DNA of 16,237 bases from Gemmatimonadales bacterium (GCA_038321865.1 JBBQFH010000044.1:1-16237); one strand, 5' to 3'; positions 2,086-10,793 are shown, numbered from the stretch's first letter. Numbers and translations are program-made. The notes: a model not told the origin generated them from the sequence alone.

Positions 2086-4497
2086 ATGCCAAAACGTCTC
2101 GCTGGACTGCTTCTCGTCGTCGTTGCCCTCGCCACGGCTCGTCTCGCCCGTGCGCAGGAACCCGCCGCCAGTCCGGCTCCGCCGATCGACAGCATCACCG
2201 TCGAGGGCAACAAGCGGCTGACGTCAAGCCAGGTTCTGTCCACTGCCGCACTGGTTCCACACTCGGTCATCAACTACCGTGACGTGCAGCGCGCCATCAC
2301 CGCGCTGTTCCGCACCGGCCAGTTCGATGACGTGGCGGTCGATCAGCGAATCGTGGGTGGACGGGCCATCCTCGCGATCACGGTCAAGGAGCGTCCCCTC
2401 CTGGAGAAATGGCTGGTGCAGGGGGTTCAGCGCCTTCCCGAGGCCGACGTGCGCGAGCGGGTGAAGCTGATCGACGGTCGGCCGCTCGACCGGGCGGCGG
2501 TCGAGCACGGGCGCGCCAGCATCGACTCGGTGTACAAGCGGCAGGGCTACTACACTGCATCCGTCAAGGTCACTCAGCTGCTCCAGCCGGACGGCAAGGT
2601 TCGCGTCATCTACGATGTGACCGAGGGCAATCGGGTCGCCATCAGCCAGGTGGTCGTGGACAGCAACACGCATTTCACCGATGCCGAAATCGTGAAGCAC
2701 ATGGGGAGCCGCCCGGAGGGATTCTGGTGGTATCGCAAGGGCGAATATGACGAGCGGAGAGTCGAGGAAGATGTGCGGGACCGGCTGCCGGCTTTTTACG
2801 CCGATCGGGGCTACGTCGACTTTCACGTCACGCGCGACACCCTCGTTGCCGACAGCGCGGGCGGAAAGGCCGTGTTGCACCTGACCGTCGACGAAGGGCC
2901 CGTCTACCGTGTGGGCACCTTCGATGTCAGCGGCAACCGCCGGTTTTCGACGGAAGAGTTGCTGCAGCTCTATCCCTTTGCGACGGCTCAGGCGCGAACG
3001 GCGGCCGACAGCGCGGCCGGCCCCGTCTCCTCAGGCCGCCCCTTCAGCCAGGCCGATTGGGACGCCGCCACGTCGAAGGTGCAGGATGCGTATTCCAACA
3101 ACGGCTACATCTACGCCCGCGTGGAACCAACCGAGCGCCGCCGGACCGGCCCCGATGGCCAGCCGATCGTCGACCTCGCGTGGACGATCCAGGAAGGCCA
3201 GATCGCGACGATCAACAAGATCAACATCGTTGGCAACGATGTGACGCACGAGCGCGTCATTCGCGAAGCCATTGTCCTGCTCCCCGGCGCCGTCTTCAGC
3301 CGTGACCTCCTCATTCGCTCGTATCAGAACGTGGGCAACCTCGGCTTCTTTCAGCAGCCCATGGCGACCCCGTCGGTGGACCCGGTGCCGGGCAGCCCTG
3401 ACGTCGACATCACCTTTCGAGTCGAGGAGAAGCGCACCGGCAACATCAACTTCGGCGCCTCGCTCGGCCAGGGCACCGGCGTGGGCGGATTTCTCGGCCT
3501 GGAGGAGCCCAATCTCTTCGGCCGGGGCAAGCGTGGCCGTCTGCAGTGGCAGTTCGGCACCAACATCAACGATTTCACGCTGAGTTACAGCGACCCGGCA
3601 ATTCGGGAGAGCCGGATCTCCGGCACGGTCGCCGTGTACGATTCGCGCCAGCGATACACGATCAAGGACCTCGGGCAGCGCCGGCAGATCGGCGGGAACC
3701 TCCAGCTCGGGCTCCCGTTCTTCGGGTCGCGGTACACCCGGATTTTCGGAAGCTACGGACTACAGCGCATTCGTTACTCCGACGGCTCGGAGGACATTCA
3801 GAAGAATTTCGTCTGCAACAACTGCACGCGGTCGACGCTGGGAGCGTCGCTGCTTCGCGATACGAGAGTGGGACTGCCCTTCGCGACCGGAGGGTCCCAG
3901 ACCACCGTGAGCGGTGAGCTGAACGGCGGCTTTCTCGGTGGAACGGGCCACTATCAGAAAGTGGACGTGGAGGGCCGCTGGTATGCCCCACTGGGGACGC
4001 TGGGCGGCTCCGGCACCCAGTTCGGCGGCGGCGTGCAGTTCGTCCTGGGGCTGACCGCCAAGTCCGGCTTCGTGTTCGGTGATGCACACAACTTTTTCAC
4101 GGAGCTGTATACCCTTGGTGGCGTGCAGTTTGGCGCCCCCCTCCGTGGCTACACCGAATGCTCGATCACGCCGAACGGTTACGACGCCTCCGCGGGAGGC
4201 TCGAGCTGCAGTCCCGCGGCCTTTGGCAAGGCTTATGCATCCTTCACGGTGGAAGCCGGCGCCCGGATGAGCCAGGCGCTCTACTTCAGCACCTTCTTCG
4301 ATGCGGGCAACGTCTATCGGACGGCCCGCCAGTACGATCCCACCCGGCTGTTTCGCGGAGCCGGCTTCGGGGTGGCGCTGGTATCGCCACTGGGCCCGAT
4401 CGGCGTGGACGTCGGGTATGGCTTCGACCGCGTCGACCTCCAGGGCAATCCGAATCCGGGGTGGCAGCTTCATTTCAAGATCGGCAACTTCTTCTAG
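2086..4497 (+). CDS. bamA: Outer membrane protein assembly factor BamA (Omp85 family), 803 aa
   Basis: ATG at 2086 gives a Sec signal peptide (MPKRLAGLLLVVVALATARLARA-QE). It has repeated POTRA motifs (ITVEGNKR, LFRTGQF, YKRQGY, YADRGY, YSNNGY, INIVGN), a barrel start (VEEKRTGNINFGAS...EPNLFGRG), the loop-6 LRGY motif and a C-terminal SPLGPI...HFKIGNFF ending in Phe. Confidence 0.95.
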   Translation: MPKRLAGLLLVVVALATARLARAQEPAASPAPPIDSITVEGNKRLTSSQVLSTAALVPHSVINYRDVQRAITALFRTGQFDDVAVDQRIVGGRAILAITVKERPLLEKWLVQGVQRLPEADVRERVKLIDGRPLDRAAVEHGRASIDSVYKRQGYYTASVKVTQLLQPDGKVRVIYDVTEGNRVAISQVVVDSNTHFTDAEIVKHMGSRPEGFWWYRKGEYDERRVEEDVRDRLPAFYADRGYVDFHVTRDTLVADSAGGKAVLHLTVDEGPVYRVGTFDVSGNRRFSTEELLQLYPFATAQARTAADSAAGPVSSGRPFSQADWDAATSKVQDAYSNNGYIYARVEPTERRRTGPDGQPIVDLAWTIQEGQIATINKINIVGNDVTHERVIREAIVLLPGAVFSRDLLIRSYQNVGNLGFFQQPMATPSVDPVPGSPDVDITFRVEEKRTGNINFGASLGQGTGVGGFLGLEEPNLFGRGKRGRLQWQFGTNINDFTLSYSDPAIRESRISGTVAVYDSRQRYTIKDLGQRRQIGGNLQLGLPFFGSRYTRIFGSYGLQRIRYSDGSEDIQKNFVCNNCTRSTLGASLLRDTRVGLPFATGGSQTTVSGELNGGFLGGTGHYQKVDVEGRWYAPLGTLGGSGTQFGGGVQFVLGLTAKSGFVFGDAHNFFTELYTLGGVQFGAPLRGYTECSITPNGYDASAGGSSCSPAAFGKAYASFTVEAGARMSQALYFSTFFDAGNVYRTARQYDPTRLFRGAGFGVALVSPLGPIGVDVGYGFDRVDLQGNPNPGWQLHFKIGNFF

Positions 4498-4530
4498 CAG
4501 CATGCGGATCGACCTCAACGGGAGTACAGC

Positions 4531-5073
4531 ATGAAGTTCGTCGTGACAGGGACCCTCGCCGTTCTCGCTGCCCTCACCCTCGGCGGCAGCACGCCGGTGA
4601 CGGCACAGGCTACGGCCGCGGGAACGAAGATCGCCTTCGTCAACTCGCAGAAGATTCTCAAGGAAACGCCGGGCTACGCGCAGGCGGAGACGACGTTCAC
4701 CCGGGAACTCGCCACCTTTCGAACCGAAGTCGAGCAGCTTCAGGCAAAGCTCGATTCATCCGCGGCGGATTTTCAGCAGCAGGGCACACTGTTGAGCCCG
4801 AGCGCGCGGGAGGCGAAGCGGAAACTGCTCGAGACCCAGCAGTCGCAGCTGGAGCAGCGCACCCAGGATCTCCAGCAGCGGGCCGCCACGCGTGAGCGCG
4901 AGCTGCTGGACCCAATTCAGAACCGGGTGTCAGCCGTCGTGGAGCAGATTCGCGCCGCCGGGGGCTACGCCATGGTGTTCGATGTGGGAACGCCGGGGAC
5001 GTCGGTCGTGGCGGCGGACAAATCGCTCGACCTGAGCGACCGGGTCATCGCCCAGCTGAAGAGGGGCATGTAG
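4531..5073 (+). CDS. skp: Skp/OmpH periplasmic chaperone
   Basis: GGGAG RBS, signal peptide, KIAFVNSQKIL N-terminal strand, long Gln/Glu-rich coiled coil, GYAMVFD and DLSDRVI C-terminal motifs. Lies directly after bamA. Confidence 0.92.
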   Translation: MKFVVTGTLAVLAALTLGGSTPVTAQATAAGTKIAFVNSQKILKETPGYAQAETTFTRELATFRTEVEQLQAKLDSSAADFQQQGTLLSPSAREAKRKLLETQQSQLEQRTQDLQQRAATRERELLDPIQNRVSAVVEQIRAAGGYAMVFDVGTPGTSVVAADKSLDLSDRVIAQLKRGM

Positions 5074-5101
5074 GCGCGGGCCCGCGCGCTGTTCCACCGC
5101 T

Positions 5102-5136
5102 CAGGCGGCCGCCGACGATGTCGGCGGCCGCCTGTT
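5102..5136 (+). terminator. Perfect 15-bp stem-loop between skp and fabZ (terminator, stabiliser or REP-like element)
   Basis: CAGGCGGCCGCCGAC (5102-5116), GAT loop, GTCGGCGGCCGCCTG (5120-5134). Only TT follows, so the U-tract is weak. Confidence 0.5.
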
Positions 5137-5175
5137 GCTGAGGACACCCTGAGTTCGCCCGCATCCGGGAGCCCC

Positions 5176-5613
5176 ATGAGCGCCATCGACATTCAGCGCA
5201 TCCTTGAACTCCTGCCGCACCGCTACCCGTTCCTCCTGGTCGACCGTATCCTCGAGGTCGAGGGCACCACGCGCATCGTCGGCCTCAAGAACGTCTCGAT
5301 CAACGAGCCGTTCTTCCAGGGACATTTCCCCGGGCACCCGATCATGCCGGGCGTCCTGATCGTCGAGGCCATGGCGCAGGTGGGCGGAGTGCTCGCCATG
5401 GCAGCGATCGATCGCCCGGAAGACAAGGTGGTCTATTTCATGTCGCTCGATAACGTCAAGTTCCGGCGGCCCGTCGTGCCCGGCGACCAGCTTCGCATGG
5501 AGGTCGAGATGCTGCAGAATCGCGGCCGGACCTGCCGCCTCAGAGGGATGGCATATGTCGATGGAGTGCTGGTCGCCGAGGCGGAAATGATGGCCCGTGT
5601 CGTCGATCGCTGA
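5176..5613 (+). CDS. fabZ: 3-hydroxyacyl-ACP dehydratase FabZ (stand-alone, 145 aa)
   Basis: [35 protein letters not shown] (catalytic His and Glu present) and [20 protein letters not shown] at 5167-5171. Confidence 0.96.
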
Positions 5614-5672
5614 GCCGGTTAGATTCCGTTCGCCGCTCGGGCGGCGCATCCCGTGCGTGCGGAGCTGAGGCG

Positions 5673-6716
5673 ATGCCACGGCGGCGTGGGGATAGTCACC
5701 GGCTGATACGCTGGCTGTGGACCAGCTCGCGAGCCGACGCGCGGGCCGCCCGCATGGTGCTGCTGCCGGCCTCGGGAGTCTGGCAGTCGGTCATGGCGGC
5801 TCGGGAGCGGGCCTACAGCCGCGGCTGGCTGCCGACCGTTCGCCTGCCGCTGCCGACCGTTGGGATCGGAAACCTGACCGTGGGGGGCTCCGGCCGCTCC
5901 GCCGTGACGGCCTGGGCGGCACGGCATTTCGCCGCGTCGGGAGTGCGCGCCGGTCTGCTGCTGCACGAATCGCCGGGAATCGCCGAGGCGATCGCGCGGT
6001 CGATTCCCGCGGCGGTCGTCGTCAATCGCAGCGATCGTGGGGCAGCGGCCCAGGCCGCAGCGGCCGAAGGCGCCGCGGTTCTCATTCTGGACGACGCGTT
6101 CCAGCGGCTCGGCATCGGCCGCGACCTCAACATCGCGGTGGTGAGCGCGGAAACGACGCGCGCCGTGGCGTGGGCACTGCCGGCGGGTCCATGGCGAGAG
6201 GGCCGGCGACTGGGCCTGCGCCGGGCGGATGCAGTCGTCATCACGCGGCGCCGGGCGGATCCGGAAGCAGCGTCCGCCCTCGCGGCGGAGCTGGCCGGTA
6301 TCGTGCGAGGACCGGTCGCCATCGCGCAGCTGGGGCTGCTGCAGCTGCGGGGACTCGTCAGCGGGACGGTGTATCCCGCCTCACTGCTCAAGGGCAAGCG
6401 GGTGGTGGCTGCCACTGGCCTCGCCGATCCCGACGCCTTCGTCGCGCACGTCAAGTCGGCTGGAGGGGCGGTGCAGGTCGCGACCTGGAAGGATCAGGCT
6501 GAGCTGCGCGACGAGGACGTGGCCTGGCTGGCGCATGCCGCCCGTCGCGCCGACCACGTCGTCGTCACCGAACGAGATGCCGTCCGGCTCCGCGACCGAT
6601 GGGCCGCTACGGTGCCTGAGCCGCTCGTCGCCGTCATGGAGCTCACGTGGGAACACAACGGCGGTGCGATCGCCGAGGCGCTGGACCGCCTCGCGGGCCG
6701 TGCCGCCCATTCGTAA
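5673..6716 (+). CDS. lpxK: Tetraacyldisaccharide 4'-kinase (LpxK)-like protein with degenerate catalytic motifs
   Basis: LpxK scaffold motifs occur in order: N-terminal helix (LLPASGVWQSVMAARERAYSRG), PTVGIGNLTVGGSG, LILDDAFQ, RDLNI, LPAGPWRE, TGLADPDAF and VTERDAVRL. Walker A reads GSGRSA rather than GxGKTP, and the RGYG/DE and DHH motifs are replaced. Confidence 0.8.
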   Translation: MPRRRGDSHRLIRWLWTSSRADARAARMVLLPASGVWQSVMAARERAYSRGWLPTVRLPLPTVGIGNLTVGGSGRSAVTAWAARHFAASGVRAGLLLHESPGIAEAIARSIPAAVVVNRSDRGAAAQAAAAEGAAVLILDDAFQRLGIGRDLNIAVVSAETTRAVAWALPAGPWREGRRLGLRRADAVVITRRRADPEAASALAAELAGIVRGPVAIAQLGLLQLRGLVSGTVYPASLLKGKRVVAATGLADPDAFVAHVKSAGGAVQVATWKDQAELRDEDVAWLAHAARRADHVVVTERDAVRLRDRWAATVPEPLVAVMELTWEHNGGAIAEALDRLAGRAAHS

Positions 6717-6752: not shown

Positions 6753-8057
6753 ATGACCACTGCAATGCCGAAGGACAGCCCGCTGATTCGCCCCGACAAG
6801 GAGACGTTCCTCTCGGAAGAGAACCCGTTCGAATCGATGATGTCGCGATTCGATGACGCGGCGAAACGCCTCAATCTCGACCCAGGCCTCTACAAGATCC
6901 TGCGCAATCCGGAGAAACAGATCATCGTGTCGGTGCCGGTTCCGCGCGACAACGGCGAGATCGACGTGTACACCGGGTACCGGGTGCTCTACAACACGTC
7001 GCGCGGCCCAGCCAAGGGCGGGATCCGGTTCGACATGAACGTGACGCTGGACGAGGTGAAGGCCCTGGCGGCATGGATGACGTGGAAGTGTGCGGTGGTC
7101 AACATCCCGTTCGGCGGCGCCAAGGGCGGCGTCATCTGCGACCCAGGCACCATGTCGAACGGTGAGCTGGAGCGGCTCACGCGACGCTACACCTCGGCCA
7201 TCATCGACACCCTCGGCCCTGACTCGGACGTGCCGGCGCCGGACGTGAATACGAATGAACGGGTCATGGCGTGGATCATGGATACCTACTCCATGCACAA
7301 GCGCCACACGGTGACCGCTGTCGTCACCGGCAAGCCGGTCGAGATGGGCGGCTCGCTTGGCCGCCGCGAGGCCACCGGCCGCGGCTGCATGATCGTCACG
7401 CGCGAGGCGCTGAAGAAGCTGGGCATGCCGATCAAGGGCGCACGCGTCGTCGTGCAGGGTTTCGGCAACGTCGGATCGATCGCCGCGCAGCTCCTGGAAG
7501 CCGAGGGCGCCAGGATCGTGGCGGTCAGTGACAAATCGGGCGGCCTGCATAATCAGGCTGGCCTCGACGTGAATGACGTGCTCGCGTGGGTCCGGGAGAA
7601 GAAGCTGCTTCGGGGATATCCGAAGGCGGAGGCAGTCAGCAACGAGGAGCTGCTGACGATCCCGTGTGAGGTCCTGCTGCCGGCAGCGCTGGAAAACGTC
7701 ATCACCAGCAAGAACGCCAAGGATATTCACGCCAAGATCATCTGCGAGGGCGCCAACGGCCCGACAACGGCCGGGGCGGACAAGATCCTCGAGGACAAGG
7801 GCGTGTTCGTGATCCCGGACATTCTGGCGAACGCCGGCGGGGTTACGGTAAGCTATTTCGAGTGGGTCCAGGACCGCGGCGGGTATTTCTGGGAAGAAGA
7901 GGTCGTGAACCAGCGCCTCGAGCGCATCATGGTCCGGTCGTTCGACGAGGTCGCCGCCATGGCGGGCAAGCACTCCGTGAGCATGCGGGTCGGCGCCTAC
8001 ATGCTCTCGATCGAACGGGTGGCGGCCGTGCACCGCCTGCGCGGGCTGTATGCCTGA
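6753..8057 (+). CDS. gdhA: Glu/Leu/Phe/Val dehydrogenase, most likely NAD(P)-dependent glutamate dehydrogenase
   Basis: [48 protein letters not shown] nucleotide loop, EGANGPT and [20 protein letters not shown] upstream. Confidence 0.93.
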
Positions 8058-8550: not shown

Positions 8551-9267
8551 ATGACGGAATGGTTTGAGGAGTGGTTTGGCGAGGAGTACCTCGCGCTGTA
8601 TCCGCATCGCGATGAGGCGGATGCCATTCGGCTGATCTCCCTCATCCGCCGGGTGCTGCCGTGGGAGCCGGGCTGGCAGGTGCTCGACGTTGCCTGCGGA
8701 GCGGGGCGTCACGCGCGGGCCCTCGTCGACGCGGGAGCGACGTGCTTCGGCCTGGACCTGTCCGCGACACTCCTCCGCCGGGCGCGGGAGTTCGCCGGTG
8801 TCCCGCTCATCCGCGCCGACATGCGGCAACTCCCGGTCCGGCCCCGATCGATGCACCTCACCGTGAATCTGTTCACCAGCTTCGGCTACTTCGAATCGGA
8901 CGACGAGCACCGGGGCGCGCTCGCGGAGATGGCGGACACGCTACGTCCCGAAGGCTGGCTCGTGCTGGACTTTCTCAATGCGGACATGGTTCGGACCCGG
9001 CTCGTGCCCGAGGAGCAGGGGTCGCTCGGCGGCAAGCCGGTCCGCATCACACGAGAGCTGGCGGACGGTGGTCGCTTCGTGGTCAAGACGATCGCGACTG
9101 CCGACGGCCGGACCTACCGGGAACGGGTCCGACTGCTGTCGCGCGAGTCGCTCCGGGAGATGTTCCGCTGCGCGGGAGTGACCGTCGTCCACGAGTTCGG
9201 TGACTACGCGGGGGGGCCGGTCGGCACGGACGCGCCCCGCGTGCTCCTCATGGGACAGCTCGCGTGA
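8551..9267 (+). CDS. Class I SAM-dependent methyltransferase (candidate bacillithiol N-methyltransferase)
   Basis: VLDVACGAGRH (motif I), GLDLS, RADMR, NLFTSFGYF and LRPEGWLVLD, with an N-terminal WFEEWF..EYLALYPHRD. The stop overlaps the bshC start (GTGA). Confidence 0.88.
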   Translation: MTEWFEEWFGEEYLALYPHRDEADAIRLISLIRRVLPWEPGWQVLDVACGAGRHARALVDAGATCFGLDLSATLLRRAREFAGVPLIRADMRQLPVRPRSMHLTVNLFTSFGYFESDDEHRGALAEMADTLRPEGWLVLDFLNADMVRTRLVPEEQGSLGGKPVRITRELADGGRFVVKTIATADGRTYRERVRLLSRESLREMFRCAGVTVVHEFGDYAGGPVGTDAPRVLLMGQLA

Positions 9268-10793
9268 CCTTCCGCGTCATCACGAACGCTCCGTGCCCGC
9301 CGATCGACGGCCTTGCGCCGCGGACGGGCGGCCTGGATGCGTCACTATTGCCGGCGTTCCTCGCACCGCCGGGGCGGCCGGACCTCCTCGAGCAACTGCG
9401 TTCGCCCGGAATCCTCGCCGTCACCACCGGCCAGCAGCCTGCGCTGTTTACCGGACCGATGTACACGGTGCACAAGGCCCTGTCGGCCGGAGCGCTCGCC
9501 GAAGCTCTCGAGCGGCGATGGCAGCGACGGGTCGTGCCGATCTTCTGGGTGGCCGGGGACGACCACGATTTCGCCGAGGCGAATCATGCGGCATGGCTGG
9601 GGTCGAACGGTGAGATTCGCCGGGCCGCGTTGCCGGACCGTCCCGCCGATGCGCCAATGCTGCCGCTCTACCGCGAGCCACTCGGTGCGGAGGTGACCGA
9701 GGCGCTCGACGATTTCGCCGCCACCGTCCCGCCATCGGAATACCGGTCGTGGACGCTGGAATGGCTGCAGCGGCACTTTCGGCCCGAGGCGACGATCGCT
9801 GGCAGTACCGGCAACGCACTGGCCGAGCTCCTCGCACCCTTCGGCATCGCGTGCCTCGACAGCACCAATCCGGCATTCAAGCGGGCGGCCGGCCCCTTCC
9901 TCTTGCGGGCACTGCGTGACGCCGATGAGCTGGAATCGGCCCTGGTGGCTCGAGCCGCGGAGCTGGCAAGCGCCGGCGCCGATGGCGGGGTCGCTGTGGG
10001 AGACGGGGCTACGCTCGTGATGCTCGAAGGGGTGGCCGGCCGTGACCGGCTGGTGCGCGACGGCCAGGGATATGTGACACGGCGGGGGCGCGAGCGATTC
10101 AGCTTCGCTGATCTCGAACGCCTCGCCGACCAGCAGCCGGAACGGCTGTCGCCCAACGTGCTGCTGCGCCCGGTCATCGAGAGCGCGCTGCTGCCGACGG
10201 CAGCGTACGCCGCGGGGCCCGGCGAGCTGCGTTACCTCGCGCTGACGGAGCCGATCTACCGCCATCTGGGCGTCACGCGCCAGGTCGCCGTTCCGCGCTG
10301 GTCAGGGACGGTGGTGGATGCCAGGGTCGACCGGATCCTGGCCAAGTTCGGCCTGTCGGCGGATGACCTCGCCCAGCCGCTGTCCGCGCTCGAAACTGCT
10401 GTCGTCCGCCGTCGCCTTCCGGCCGAGGCGGAGGCCGAGTTGTCGGCCCTCCGGAGCGTCCTGACCGGGGAGTTCAGCAAGATCCGGCTTACGGCGGAGC
10501 GGATAGATCCGACGCTGGTGCGATCGGTGGACGGCCGACGCGACCGTGCGCTGGCGGATGCCGACCGGATCGAGCGGAAGCTCGTTGCGCACCTCAAGCG
10601 GCGGCTCGCCACCGAATTGCGCCAGCTGGGCGCGGCGCGCGACGCGATCCGCCCCGACGGGAGCCCGCAAGAACGCGTGCTCTGCGCGCCCTCGTTTCTG
10701 GTACGCCACGGCCCTCGGGTAGTGGAGGCAGTGGCGGAACGGGCGCGGGCCTGGTATGCCGACGCCCTTGAGCACAGTCCGGTCCCCGTCTAG
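9264..10793 (+). CDS. bshC: Bacillithiol biosynthesis cysteine-adding enzyme BshC
   Basis: VTTGQQPALFTGPMYTVHKA, VPIFWVAGDDHDFAE, RLSPNVLLRPVIES, YAAGPGELRY, PR, a C-terminal coiled coil and PQERV. Confidence 0.92.
   Translation: MTFRVITNAPCPPIDGLAPRTGGLDASLLPAFLAPPGRPDLLEQLRSPGILAVTTGQQPALFTGPMYTVHKALSAGALAEALERRWQRRVVPIFWVAGDDHDFAEANHAAWLGSNGEIRRAALPDRPADAPMLPLYREPLGAEVTEALDDFAATVPPSEYRSWTLEWLQRHFRPEATIAGSTGNALAELLAPFGIACLDSTNPAFKRAAGPFLLRALRDADELESALVARAAELASAGADGGVAVGDGATLVMLEGVAGRDRLVRDGQGYVTRRGRERFSFADLERLADQQPERLSPNVLLRPVIESALLPTAAYAAGPGELRYLALTEPIYRHLGVTRQVAVPRWSGTVVDARVDRILAKFGLSADDLAQPLSALETAVVRRRLPAEAEAELSALRSVLTGEFSKIRLTAERIDPTLVRSVDGRRDRALADADRIERKLVAHLKRRLATELRQLGAARDAIRPDGSPQERVLCAPSFLVRHGPRVVEAVAERARAWYADALEHSPVPV

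Follow-up and report, generated by a model that had tools for sequence, protein, structure and literature searches.

Several Gemmatimonadales lineages that have lost the genes for LPS synthesis keep one of them, lpxK, in a form stripped of catalytic residues and held under purifying selection. The case analysed here lies in a 16,237-nt stretch of DNA (the window) from Gemmatimonadales bacterium GCA_038321865.1 (JBBQFH010000044.1:1-16237). The gene at 5,673-6,716 encodes a 347-residue protein that, judged by its sequence, is an LpxK by descent and does not qualify as an active one. LpxK, an antibiotic target, is a textbook case of an enzyme with a single function. Selection that still maintains an LpxK form once the whole pathway has disappeared is direct genetic evidence that the protein has a second function. 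This protein is probably a membrane-bound pseudokinase with a non-catalytic role in an envelope function other than LPS. We infer three components of that role: absence of kinase activity, membrane anchoring, and binding in envelope lipid traffic. The window holds these features:

2,086-5,073, plus strand: bamA and ompH/skp, retained outer-membrane machinery, upstream (Pfam)
5,074-5,175: deletion junction, where relatives have lpxD and the lpxC half of a fusion (gene-order comparison)
5,176-5,613, plus strand: stand-alone fabZ, the remnant half of an ancestral lpxC-fabZ fusion (Pfam, gene-order maps)
5,614-5,672: deletion junction, where relatives have lpxA, a gnnA-like oxidoreductase, lpxB, and DUF374 (gene-order maps)
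5,619-5,625, plus strand: TTAGATT in the fabZ-lpxK spacer, a -10-like hexamer and candidate promoter (motif count)
5,673-6,716, plus strand: LpxK-family putative pseudokinase, 347 aa, open frame without a stop (PF02606, fold match)
5,682-5,771, plus strand: patch 1 (aa 4-33), N-terminal amphipathic helices, basic and rich in Trp, predicted membrane anchor (conservation, model)
5,883-5,903, plus strand: Walker A altered to GGSGRSA (K75R, equivalent to Aquifex K51; T76S; P77A), Arg codon CGC at 5,895-5,897
5,964-5,984, plus strand: HESPGIA in place of RGYGGDE, with the R72, D99, and E100 equivalents gone (motif reading, alignment)
6,090-6,095, plus strand: Walker B DD (Aquifex D138/D139), retained (motif reading)
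6,147-6,200, plus strand: conserved loop aa 159-176, with the LpxK PAGxxRE motif at its end (R175, equivalent to Aquifex R171; identity 0.82 vs 0.85)
6,438-6,554, plus strand: patch 2 (aa 256-294), C-terminal domain, helix 280-292 (conservation, model)
6,486-6,500, plus strand: WKDQA, the catalytic His (Aquifex H261) replaced by Gln275 (alignment numbering)
6,567-6,587, plus strand: TERDAVR, K301R (Aquifex K280 by motif; motif reading)
6,753-8,057, plus strand: gdh (Glu/Leu/Phe/Val dehydrogenase), conserved downstream neighbour (Pfam, gene-order maps)
9,264-10,793: bshC (bacillithiol biosynthesis), a constant neighbour across the order (gene-order maps)

The frame begins with an ATG that has GGAG 9-12 nt upstream. 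Its product scores 163.6 bits against PF02606 (Pfam cut-off, 27), its predicted structure has a pLDDT of 94 (alignment of 107 rows), and Aquifex LpxK supplies the top six fold matches of the model (Foldseek E 1e-17, TM about 0.7). The original prediction, a full-length LpxK scaffold in an open 347-residue frame, is confirmed, as are all the motifs and coordinates that it named. The TIGR00682 equivalog cut-off is not reached (86 vs 91.95 bits; an intact relative, G023, scores 140.6), and the protein is the sole LpxK match in its own genome. An atlas search without PF02606 returned only scores below 0.8 (2,3-diphosphoglycerate synthetase-like) and no new family; homodimer prediction gave a score of 0.01, which is evidence neither way.

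Residue numbering was fixed by profile alignment to the Aquifex LpxK chain, and the last of the following equivalences was assigned by motif: K51=R75, T52=S76, R72=H98, D99/E100=G102/I103, R119=R122, D138/D139=D140/D141, R171=R175, H261=Q275, and K280=R301. Five of the eight catalytic positions are changed. Alignment around G102 and I103 is loose, yet there is no DE anywhere in the segment. The eroded motifs originally described stand in part: K75R, P77A, R98H, D102G, E103I, H275Q, and K301R are true changes relative to intact relatives, whereas the short RGY-DE loop and the WK of WKD were rejected as signs of decay. Both are family norms, as pathway-bearing relatives read LLRGY-GGDE with equally short spacing and mostly TW(K/R)DHH, not FPDHH.

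According to a review of the enzyme, the LpxK His is the proton acceptor and the Asp raises the pKa of that His (PMC6286764), which corrects the earlier assignment of Asp as general base. The same source reports that Aquifex K51A, T52A, H261A, and D138/D139 mutations lower kcat 850- to 8100-fold. Among the lipid IVA contacts, R72 is lost (H98), and R119 and R171 are kept (R122, R175); the position of a further contact, H143, is Arg both here and in most intact family members. The loop at aa 159-176 with its PAGxxRE motif is retained in LPS-free genomes. Walker B DD, correctly read as retained, is present in the protein's own genus and absent in two other LPS-free genera.

The genes around lpxK record how the pathway was lost. 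Gene order in the window is clpC-bamA-ompH-fabZ-lpxK-gdh-rlmH-methyltransferase-bshC. Pathway-bearing relatives have clpC-bamA-ompH-lpxD-lpxC/fabZ fusion-lpxA-(gnnA-like)-lpxB-(DUF374)-lpxK-gdh, in which the gnnA-like label and the identity of DUF374 as LpxJ are presumptive; of this lpx stretch the window retains only the FabZ half and lpxK. Searches of the window's own genome found no lpxC or lpxB and no orthologues of lpxA, lpxD, or DUF374, the locus being joined across the gap. Nor did they find kdsA/B/C/D, kdtA, a GT9 heptosyltransferase, a PF03279 acyltransferase, or the MsbA-type exporter that follows a response-regulator gene. The genome keeps BamA, Skp, LptB, LptC, a gene at the LptA position, LptF, LptG, and LptD. 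The LptE model PF04390 had no match in any of 5 genomes, an LPS-making control included. In loci of family f3 (L045, L036, and others) no DUF374 match lies between lpxB and lpxK, and the pathway is intact.

Collapsed junctions are of three types: a spacer with TA[ACG]ATT (13 genomes), abutting genes (genus g89), and a stop/start overlap (G027); fabZ and lpxK are translationally coupled in the latter two. The hexamer pattern follows the fabZ stop in 13 of the 17 collapsed junctions read and in 0 of 88 intact loci, against a genome rate of 0.033 per kb. A sigma-70 scan of the fabZ-lpxK spacer found no full promoter, so the hexamer is put forward as a candidate promoter, presumably gained after the deletion. 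This -10-like sequence may also be a general promoter signature of the phylum.

The named relatives of the window are Gemmatimonadales or Gemmatimonadota MAGs. In the family sample (tallies that include the unpublished genomes G019, G096, G161, G213, and G223), an lpxK-like match occurs in 196/201 genomes and lpxC in 176/201. The 25 lpxC-less genomes comprise 18 with an eroded lpxK, 5 with contig breaks, and 2 without both matches but with kdtA. Directly upstream of the eroded gene lies fabZ in 17/18; in G174 the contig begins inside the gene. The contig-break genomes carry lpxB or DUF374 plus an intact lpxK.

Motifs were read in 118 genomes (119 rows), about half of those with an lpxK match. 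These comprise nearly all of an initial set, all matched genomes that lack lpxC, and another 45 that bear the pathway, selected mostly from the closest hits. None of 100 pathway-bearing rows is changed at any of the eight catalytic positions (with Ser accepted in place of Thr; all eight are covered in 98 rows). The LPS-free genomes carry 3-8 catalytic changes in 18/18, and the His is missing in 18/18. Two genomes chosen later solely for lacking lpxC, one of them the unpublished G485, have an eroded lpxK in 2/2, again with the His absent in 2/2; G438 and G485 (genus g89) show the collapsed locus, the eroded gene, and retention of both patches. Thus all 20 LPS-gene-free genomes with lpxK have three to eight catalytic positions changed.

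Co-occurrence of the substitutions with pathway absence, and their absence from pathway-bearing genomes, had been proposed as tests, and both are borne out. The 19-genome LPS-free group consists of the 18 plus G002 (66% complete; neither lpxK nor gdh found). There, lpxB is present in 0/19 vs 27/27 control genomes, kdtA in 0/19 vs 26/27, and kdsA in 0/19 vs 21/22. LptF/G occur in 46/46 genomes overall (19/19 LPS-free) and LptD in 17/19 LPS-free genomes. One GT9 (heptosyltransferase-family) gene is left in an LPS-free g89 genome (G104:C12:18036-18755).

Across the order, lpxC is found in 382/401 genomes (unpublished G096, G213, G248, G365, and G435 included), and in two sister families in 193/194 and 12/12. 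Six new lpxC-less genomes came from the order-wide count: four have kdtA, and three of those tested are without an lpxK match (locus unassembled); the remaining two are G438 and G485. Among the 120 best database proteins, 14 have the five changes of the window's own genus, 105 have none, and one has a single change; GGSGR, DD, and TERD are invariant in the 14/14 homologues of that genus. One of 80 named loci is collapsed and eroded; it is a possible duplicate of a counted genome and was left uncounted. Database annotation calls these proteins active kinases and so masks that the genomes are LPS-free.

Could the pathway genes be unassembled, or replaced by unrecognised homologues, with LpxK still working in lipid A synthesis? 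The window's own genome is a MAG (89.85% complete), as are all the compared genomes. MAGs are incomplete, 5 of the 25 lpxC-negative genomes are indeed contig breaks with an intact lpxK, and 6 other lpxC-less genomes have kdtA. However, at four unlinked places in the own genome a single contig runs from one flanking gene to the next, an argument against assembly gaps, and genomes 97-100% complete show the same absence (G027, G029, G088, G104, G149, and G159). Hidden synthesis is the least probable of the readings weighed here.

Gene trees point to three or more lineages that lost the LPS genes separately. In a tree built from eight neighbouring proteins, LPS-free genomes sit at 3-4 separate positions, and an AU test on the neighbour-gene tree (20 rows) gives a single origin a borderline p=0.051, not a formal rejection. 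An unlinked tree (RpoB, RpoC, EF-Tu-like, and ribosomal proteins; 39 genomes) forces three changes, rejects one clade (AU p=4e-64; 8 vs 12 rows), and places every loss within one supported subclade. G000, which lacks these genes, was left out of the unlinked tree, and three genus mates stand in. The lpxK gene tree is compatible with one origin, with G027 on a long branch. G010 (L072, L288) has the junction spacer and neighbour-tree placement of the window's own genus but groups with LPS makers on the RpoB tree; this could reflect transfer of a collapsed locus or a fourth loss. Because kin are not independent, the evidence amounts to three or four events, not 20.

Selection on the eroded gene is, by its substitution pattern, relaxed, not neutral. 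Values of dN/dS were obtained by Nei-Gojobori simple counting, which is crude for GC-rich DNA at dS near 1. Twelve non-independent LPS-free pairs give 0.04-0.29, like neighbouring genes; the closest LPS-free pairs give 0.04-0.09, and genus g73 gives 0.07-0.09. Pooled dN/dS is 0.16 in five disjoint LPS-free pairs vs 0.12 in seven intact pairs, and in the catalytic stretch (residues 93-153) it is 0.31 vs 0.075. Relative to four neighbours (gdh, rlmH, methyltransferase, and bshC), lpxK dN has a median of 1.04 in LPS-free genomes vs 0.64 in 18 intact pairs. The 56 intact rows of the subclade have 127 columns with conservation of 95% or more; in the LPS-free rows 74 of these persist, 24 are weakened, and 29 disappear. 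The lost columns include the catalytic set.

These values bear on the possibility that LpxK is drifting as the last Raetz gene to go, late steps not being lost before early ones. Depletion of LpxK in Acinetobacter is toxic unless LpxA/LpxC is blocked, according to PMC12444477, and PMC3087551 interprets the lone lpxK of Nitrosomonas europaea as genome reduction; the rise in relative rate from 0.64 to 1.04 also fits drift. Against this, no stop occurs inside the lpxK match in any of the 20 LPS-free genomes, across lineages with dS near 1, the closest pairs are strongly constrained, and erosion is limited to catalytic segments. Moreover, kdtA, which acts downstream of LpxK and is unlinked, is lost everywhere tested. 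Plain decay is rejected by dN/dS far below 1; slow decay is largely refuted already and very improbable. Of the two outcomes originally offered, decay or a retained non-catalytic or new role, the second is supported at sequence level by that constraint, by the co-occurrence of erosion with pathway absence, and by the single LpxK.

Selection might instead act on the DNA: an internal promoter, an overlapping gene, or coupling for gdh-rlmH-bshC. Although lpxK heads a conserved downstream gene run, synonymous sites are free (dS 0.5-1.6 among pairs) and replacements are constrained, and the -10-like motif sits upstream of lpxK. Each of the five other frames is closed in at least one of the 16 genomes checked (antisense frame -1 is stop-free in 7), so an overlapping gene within lpxK was rejected. 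A DNA-level explanation is very improbable.

A different prospect is that the protein still binds ATP, as a nucleotide sensor, or slowly phosphorylates a new lipid such as ceramide or a glycolipid. Walker A Lys-to-Arg variants often bind ATP without turnover. Both lysines have become Arg with DD kept in the window's own genus, and the invariance of GGSGR, DD, and TERD in 14/14 homologues leaves room for nucleotide binding; g89 and G074 mostly retain K and DD. LpxK is also loose about acyl chains (PMC6286764). However, all 20 genomes have lost the catalytic His and most the D/E pair, and g73 and g25 have lost DD and one P-loop glycine as well yet keep the patches, with low dN/dS in g73. Nor is any new active-site residue common to the lineages. 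Retained function had been expected to bring shared substitutions; instead the replacements differ by lineage, which indicates that constraint on catalysis was lost, not that a common new active site emerged. Continued ATP binding or a new kinase activity is thus unlikely, and a non-catalytic role is preferred.

Such a role would reside in two conserved patches outside the active site, both of them amphipathic helices rich in Arg and Trp. In the model, patch 1 forms helices 7-17 (hydrophobic moment 0.61) and 21-49; the part ahead of about residue 25 is without equivalent in Aquifex LpxK. In LpxK, membrane binding is mediated by the N-terminal helix (PMC6286764). For pairs matched in divergence, identity over residues 7-35 is 0.75 in LPS-free and LPS-making members of the subclade alike, and 0.35-0.43 in outer groups. 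In patch 2, residues 280-294 are 0.85 identical in LPS-free genomes, 0.82 in LPS-making subclade genomes, and 0.40 and 0.25 in outer groups. Identity over the C-terminal domain is 0.72 in LPS-free and 0.80 in LPS-making subclade genomes vs 0.49-0.57 in outer groups; over residues 93-153 it drops from 0.73 to 0.29. In the comparison that covers residues 7-35, the C-terminal domain, and residues 93-153, the family f3 figure comes from 6 pairs only. A patch-only dN/dS of 0.056 is circular, the patches having been picked on the same sequences.

Shared ancestry inflates such contrasts, and neighbour genes were therefore used as a control. The largest conservation gains in LpxK are 0.42 (residues 280-294) and 0.41 (4-18); the maximum window gain in eight neighbour genes is 0.20. 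The patches are equally conserved in LPS-making sisters and not in distant kin, which suggests that the second function arose before catalysis eroded. By these identities, constraint on the two surfaces is shown to predate the LPS losses. The patches also mark two LpxK surfaces to mutate.

Conservation gains bear equally on a role for LpxK as scaffold or regulator of its neighbour FabZ, or of fatty-acid synthesis, which would explain why fabZ and lpxK are the operon survivors. The two genes are adjacent in 19/20 LPS-free genomes and translationally coupled in g89 and G027, and modelling ties LpxK to E. coli fatty-acid flux (PMC12444477). Yet adjacency results from deletion of the intervening genes, FabZ is needed anyway, and 13 junctions place a -10-like spacer between the two. 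FabZ has no subclade-specific conserved surface (maximum gain 0.02), and it was rejected as the LpxK partner; the regulatory reading is distinctly improbable.

A pseudokinase in a non-LPS envelope raises the matter of what lipid replaces lipid A. The window's own genome and the four others tested carry an Spt-like gene, then a GNAT protein gene, then an NAD epimerase-type gene; one such row lies at G000:C27:3-3264 (L329, L354). Spt is both the best PDB match of the first product (E 9e-123) and its best NCBIfam model, below cut-off (536 vs 640); the second is a 376-aa GNAT protein and the third an NAD epimerase-type protein. Calling genes 2 and 3 bCerS and CerR is presumptive, from fold class and gene order. 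PMC11087976 and PMC11334938 describe the three-gene ceramide pathway and its clustering, and PMC9393093 and PMC13721041 the replacement of lipid A by sphingolipids in Sphingomonas and Caulobacter mutants. The cluster is a plausible substitute lipid source, and by gene content Gemmatimonadales are likely sphingolipid producers; Gemmatimonadota may already be named as such in supplementary data to the ceramide-pathway papers.

The GNAT gene occurs in 192/201 family genomes, unpublished ones included, and in 17/18 LPS-free ones; because the cluster is family-wide, co-occurrence does not discriminate for an LpxK-sphingolipid link. Subclade conservation gains are at most 0.18 for Spt, 0.27 for GNAT, and 0.20 for the epimerase, vs 0.42 for LpxK (10 LPS-free, 17 subclade, and 10 basal rows; G213 and five near-duplicates excluded). 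With such weak gains, all three were rejected as LpxK partners. Also rejected, as a universal replacement flippase, was an MsbA-like exporter near lptF/G: it has a strong match in 15/19 LPS-free genomes and occurs in LPS makers too, and it was not seen in the G001, G004, G027, G029, and G174-type lists.

These observations suggest a model for the history of the gene. In the ancestor of one subclade, still making LPS, LpxK would have gained two constrained surfaces outside the active site, a step for which conservation is observed and function proposed. At least three lineages within the subclade then deleted the Raetz genes, the Kdo genes, and one MsbA-type gene, keeping BamA and the Lpt genes, and they probably live on sphingolipids from the family-wide spt-GNAT-epimerase cluster. 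Deprived of substrate, the active site drifted lineage by lineage, with fold and patches held by the purifying selection described above. The Arg/Trp helices presumably act as membrane anchor, and lipid binding or partner docking at the patches may serve an envelope-lipid route, not that of LPS, which continues to supply the Lpt bridge.

The link of this putative pseudokinase to sphingolipids and the Lpt machinery is tentative, and on present sequence comparisons doubtful. More doubtful still is a larger conjecture: that LpxK gained a role in handling or exporting sphingolipids, for example by presenting them at the inner membrane toward the Lpt bridge, and that this innovation let the subclade discard LPS repeatedly. 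If true, a lone lpxK gene in another LPS-free bacterium, Nitrosomonas for instance, might likewise be explained by this hidden function.

Aquifex aeolicus LpxK (tetraacyldisaccharide-1-phosphate 4'-kinase; PDB 4ehx/4ehy/4lkv) shares with the Gemmatimonadales protein its two-domain fold, N-terminal amphipathic helix, Walker B DD, PAGxxRE loop, and orthologous lpx-operon position. The equivalents of K51, D99, E100, H261, K280, and R72 are changed in the latter, which, compared with active LpxK, also falls below the TIGR00682 cut-off, is accompanied by no substrate-making genes, and has two extra conserved surfaces. Pseudokinases, and pseudoenzymes in general, keep a fold, lose catalytic residues, and have surfaces under purifying selection. 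The 347-residue protein likewise combines an intact frame and fold with lost catalytic residues and subsequent purifying selection. It differs from that class as a P-loop lipid kinase, not a protein-kinase fold, that arose without gene duplication, after loss of a whole pathway.

Nitrosomonas europaea is the nearest precedent for a lone lpxK after pathway loss: it has only lpxK of the nine Kdo2-lipid A genes, and the report, as far as accessible, gives a genome-reduction reading and no active-site or selection analysis (PMC3087551). Sphingomonas spp. are naturally LPS-free with a glycosphingolipid outer leaflet (PMC9393093), and lipid A-less Caulobacter mutants need the products of Spt/bCerS/CerR (PMC9393093 and PMC11087976). 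The present genomes resemble these in retained diderm machinery, absent Raetz genes, and an spt-like gene beside GNAT and NAD epimerase-type reductase genes. Unlike them, they belong to another phylum, have undergone at least three parallel losses, and retain an eroded lpxK.

The literature searched, with subscription papers outside its scope, held no description of LPS loss in Gemmatimonadota or of an inactive LpxK, and the accessible text of PMC12444477 mentions no non-catalytic LpxK role. With these genomes, the few diderms known to be naturally LPS-free gain a further phylum, and at least three parallel losses with close LPS-making sisters provide a natural experiment on the outer-membrane lipid switch and on Lpt-bridge cargo.

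Three further observations concern the envelope of these genomes. At L189:5422-16278 (G000:C1), pyrG-lptC-lptA-like-lptB-rpoN is followed by GT2, GT4, a lysylphosphatidylglycerol-synthase-type membrane protein, a YfhO-family protein, and GT2; this glycosyltransferase run persists after excision of kdsA/B/C/D and may serve to glycosylate proteins or to build a non-LPS glycolipid. As a second survivor besides lpxK, a PF13524 glycosyltransferase-like gene remains at L190:1916-2929 (G000:C24) beside the deleted MsbA-type exporter and LPS-core cluster. Finally, TatC is fused in frame to LptD at L192:7537-11028 (G000:C14; 1164 aa) and L196:9240-12755 (G120; 1172 aa), with Pfam TatC at 12-225 plus LptD_2, joining an inner-membrane translocase subunit to an outer-membrane barrel. 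The LptD match lies within frames of ~1170-1240 aa in most family genomes and in shorter ones in g89 and the sister families; LptD of G104 has no TatC domain.
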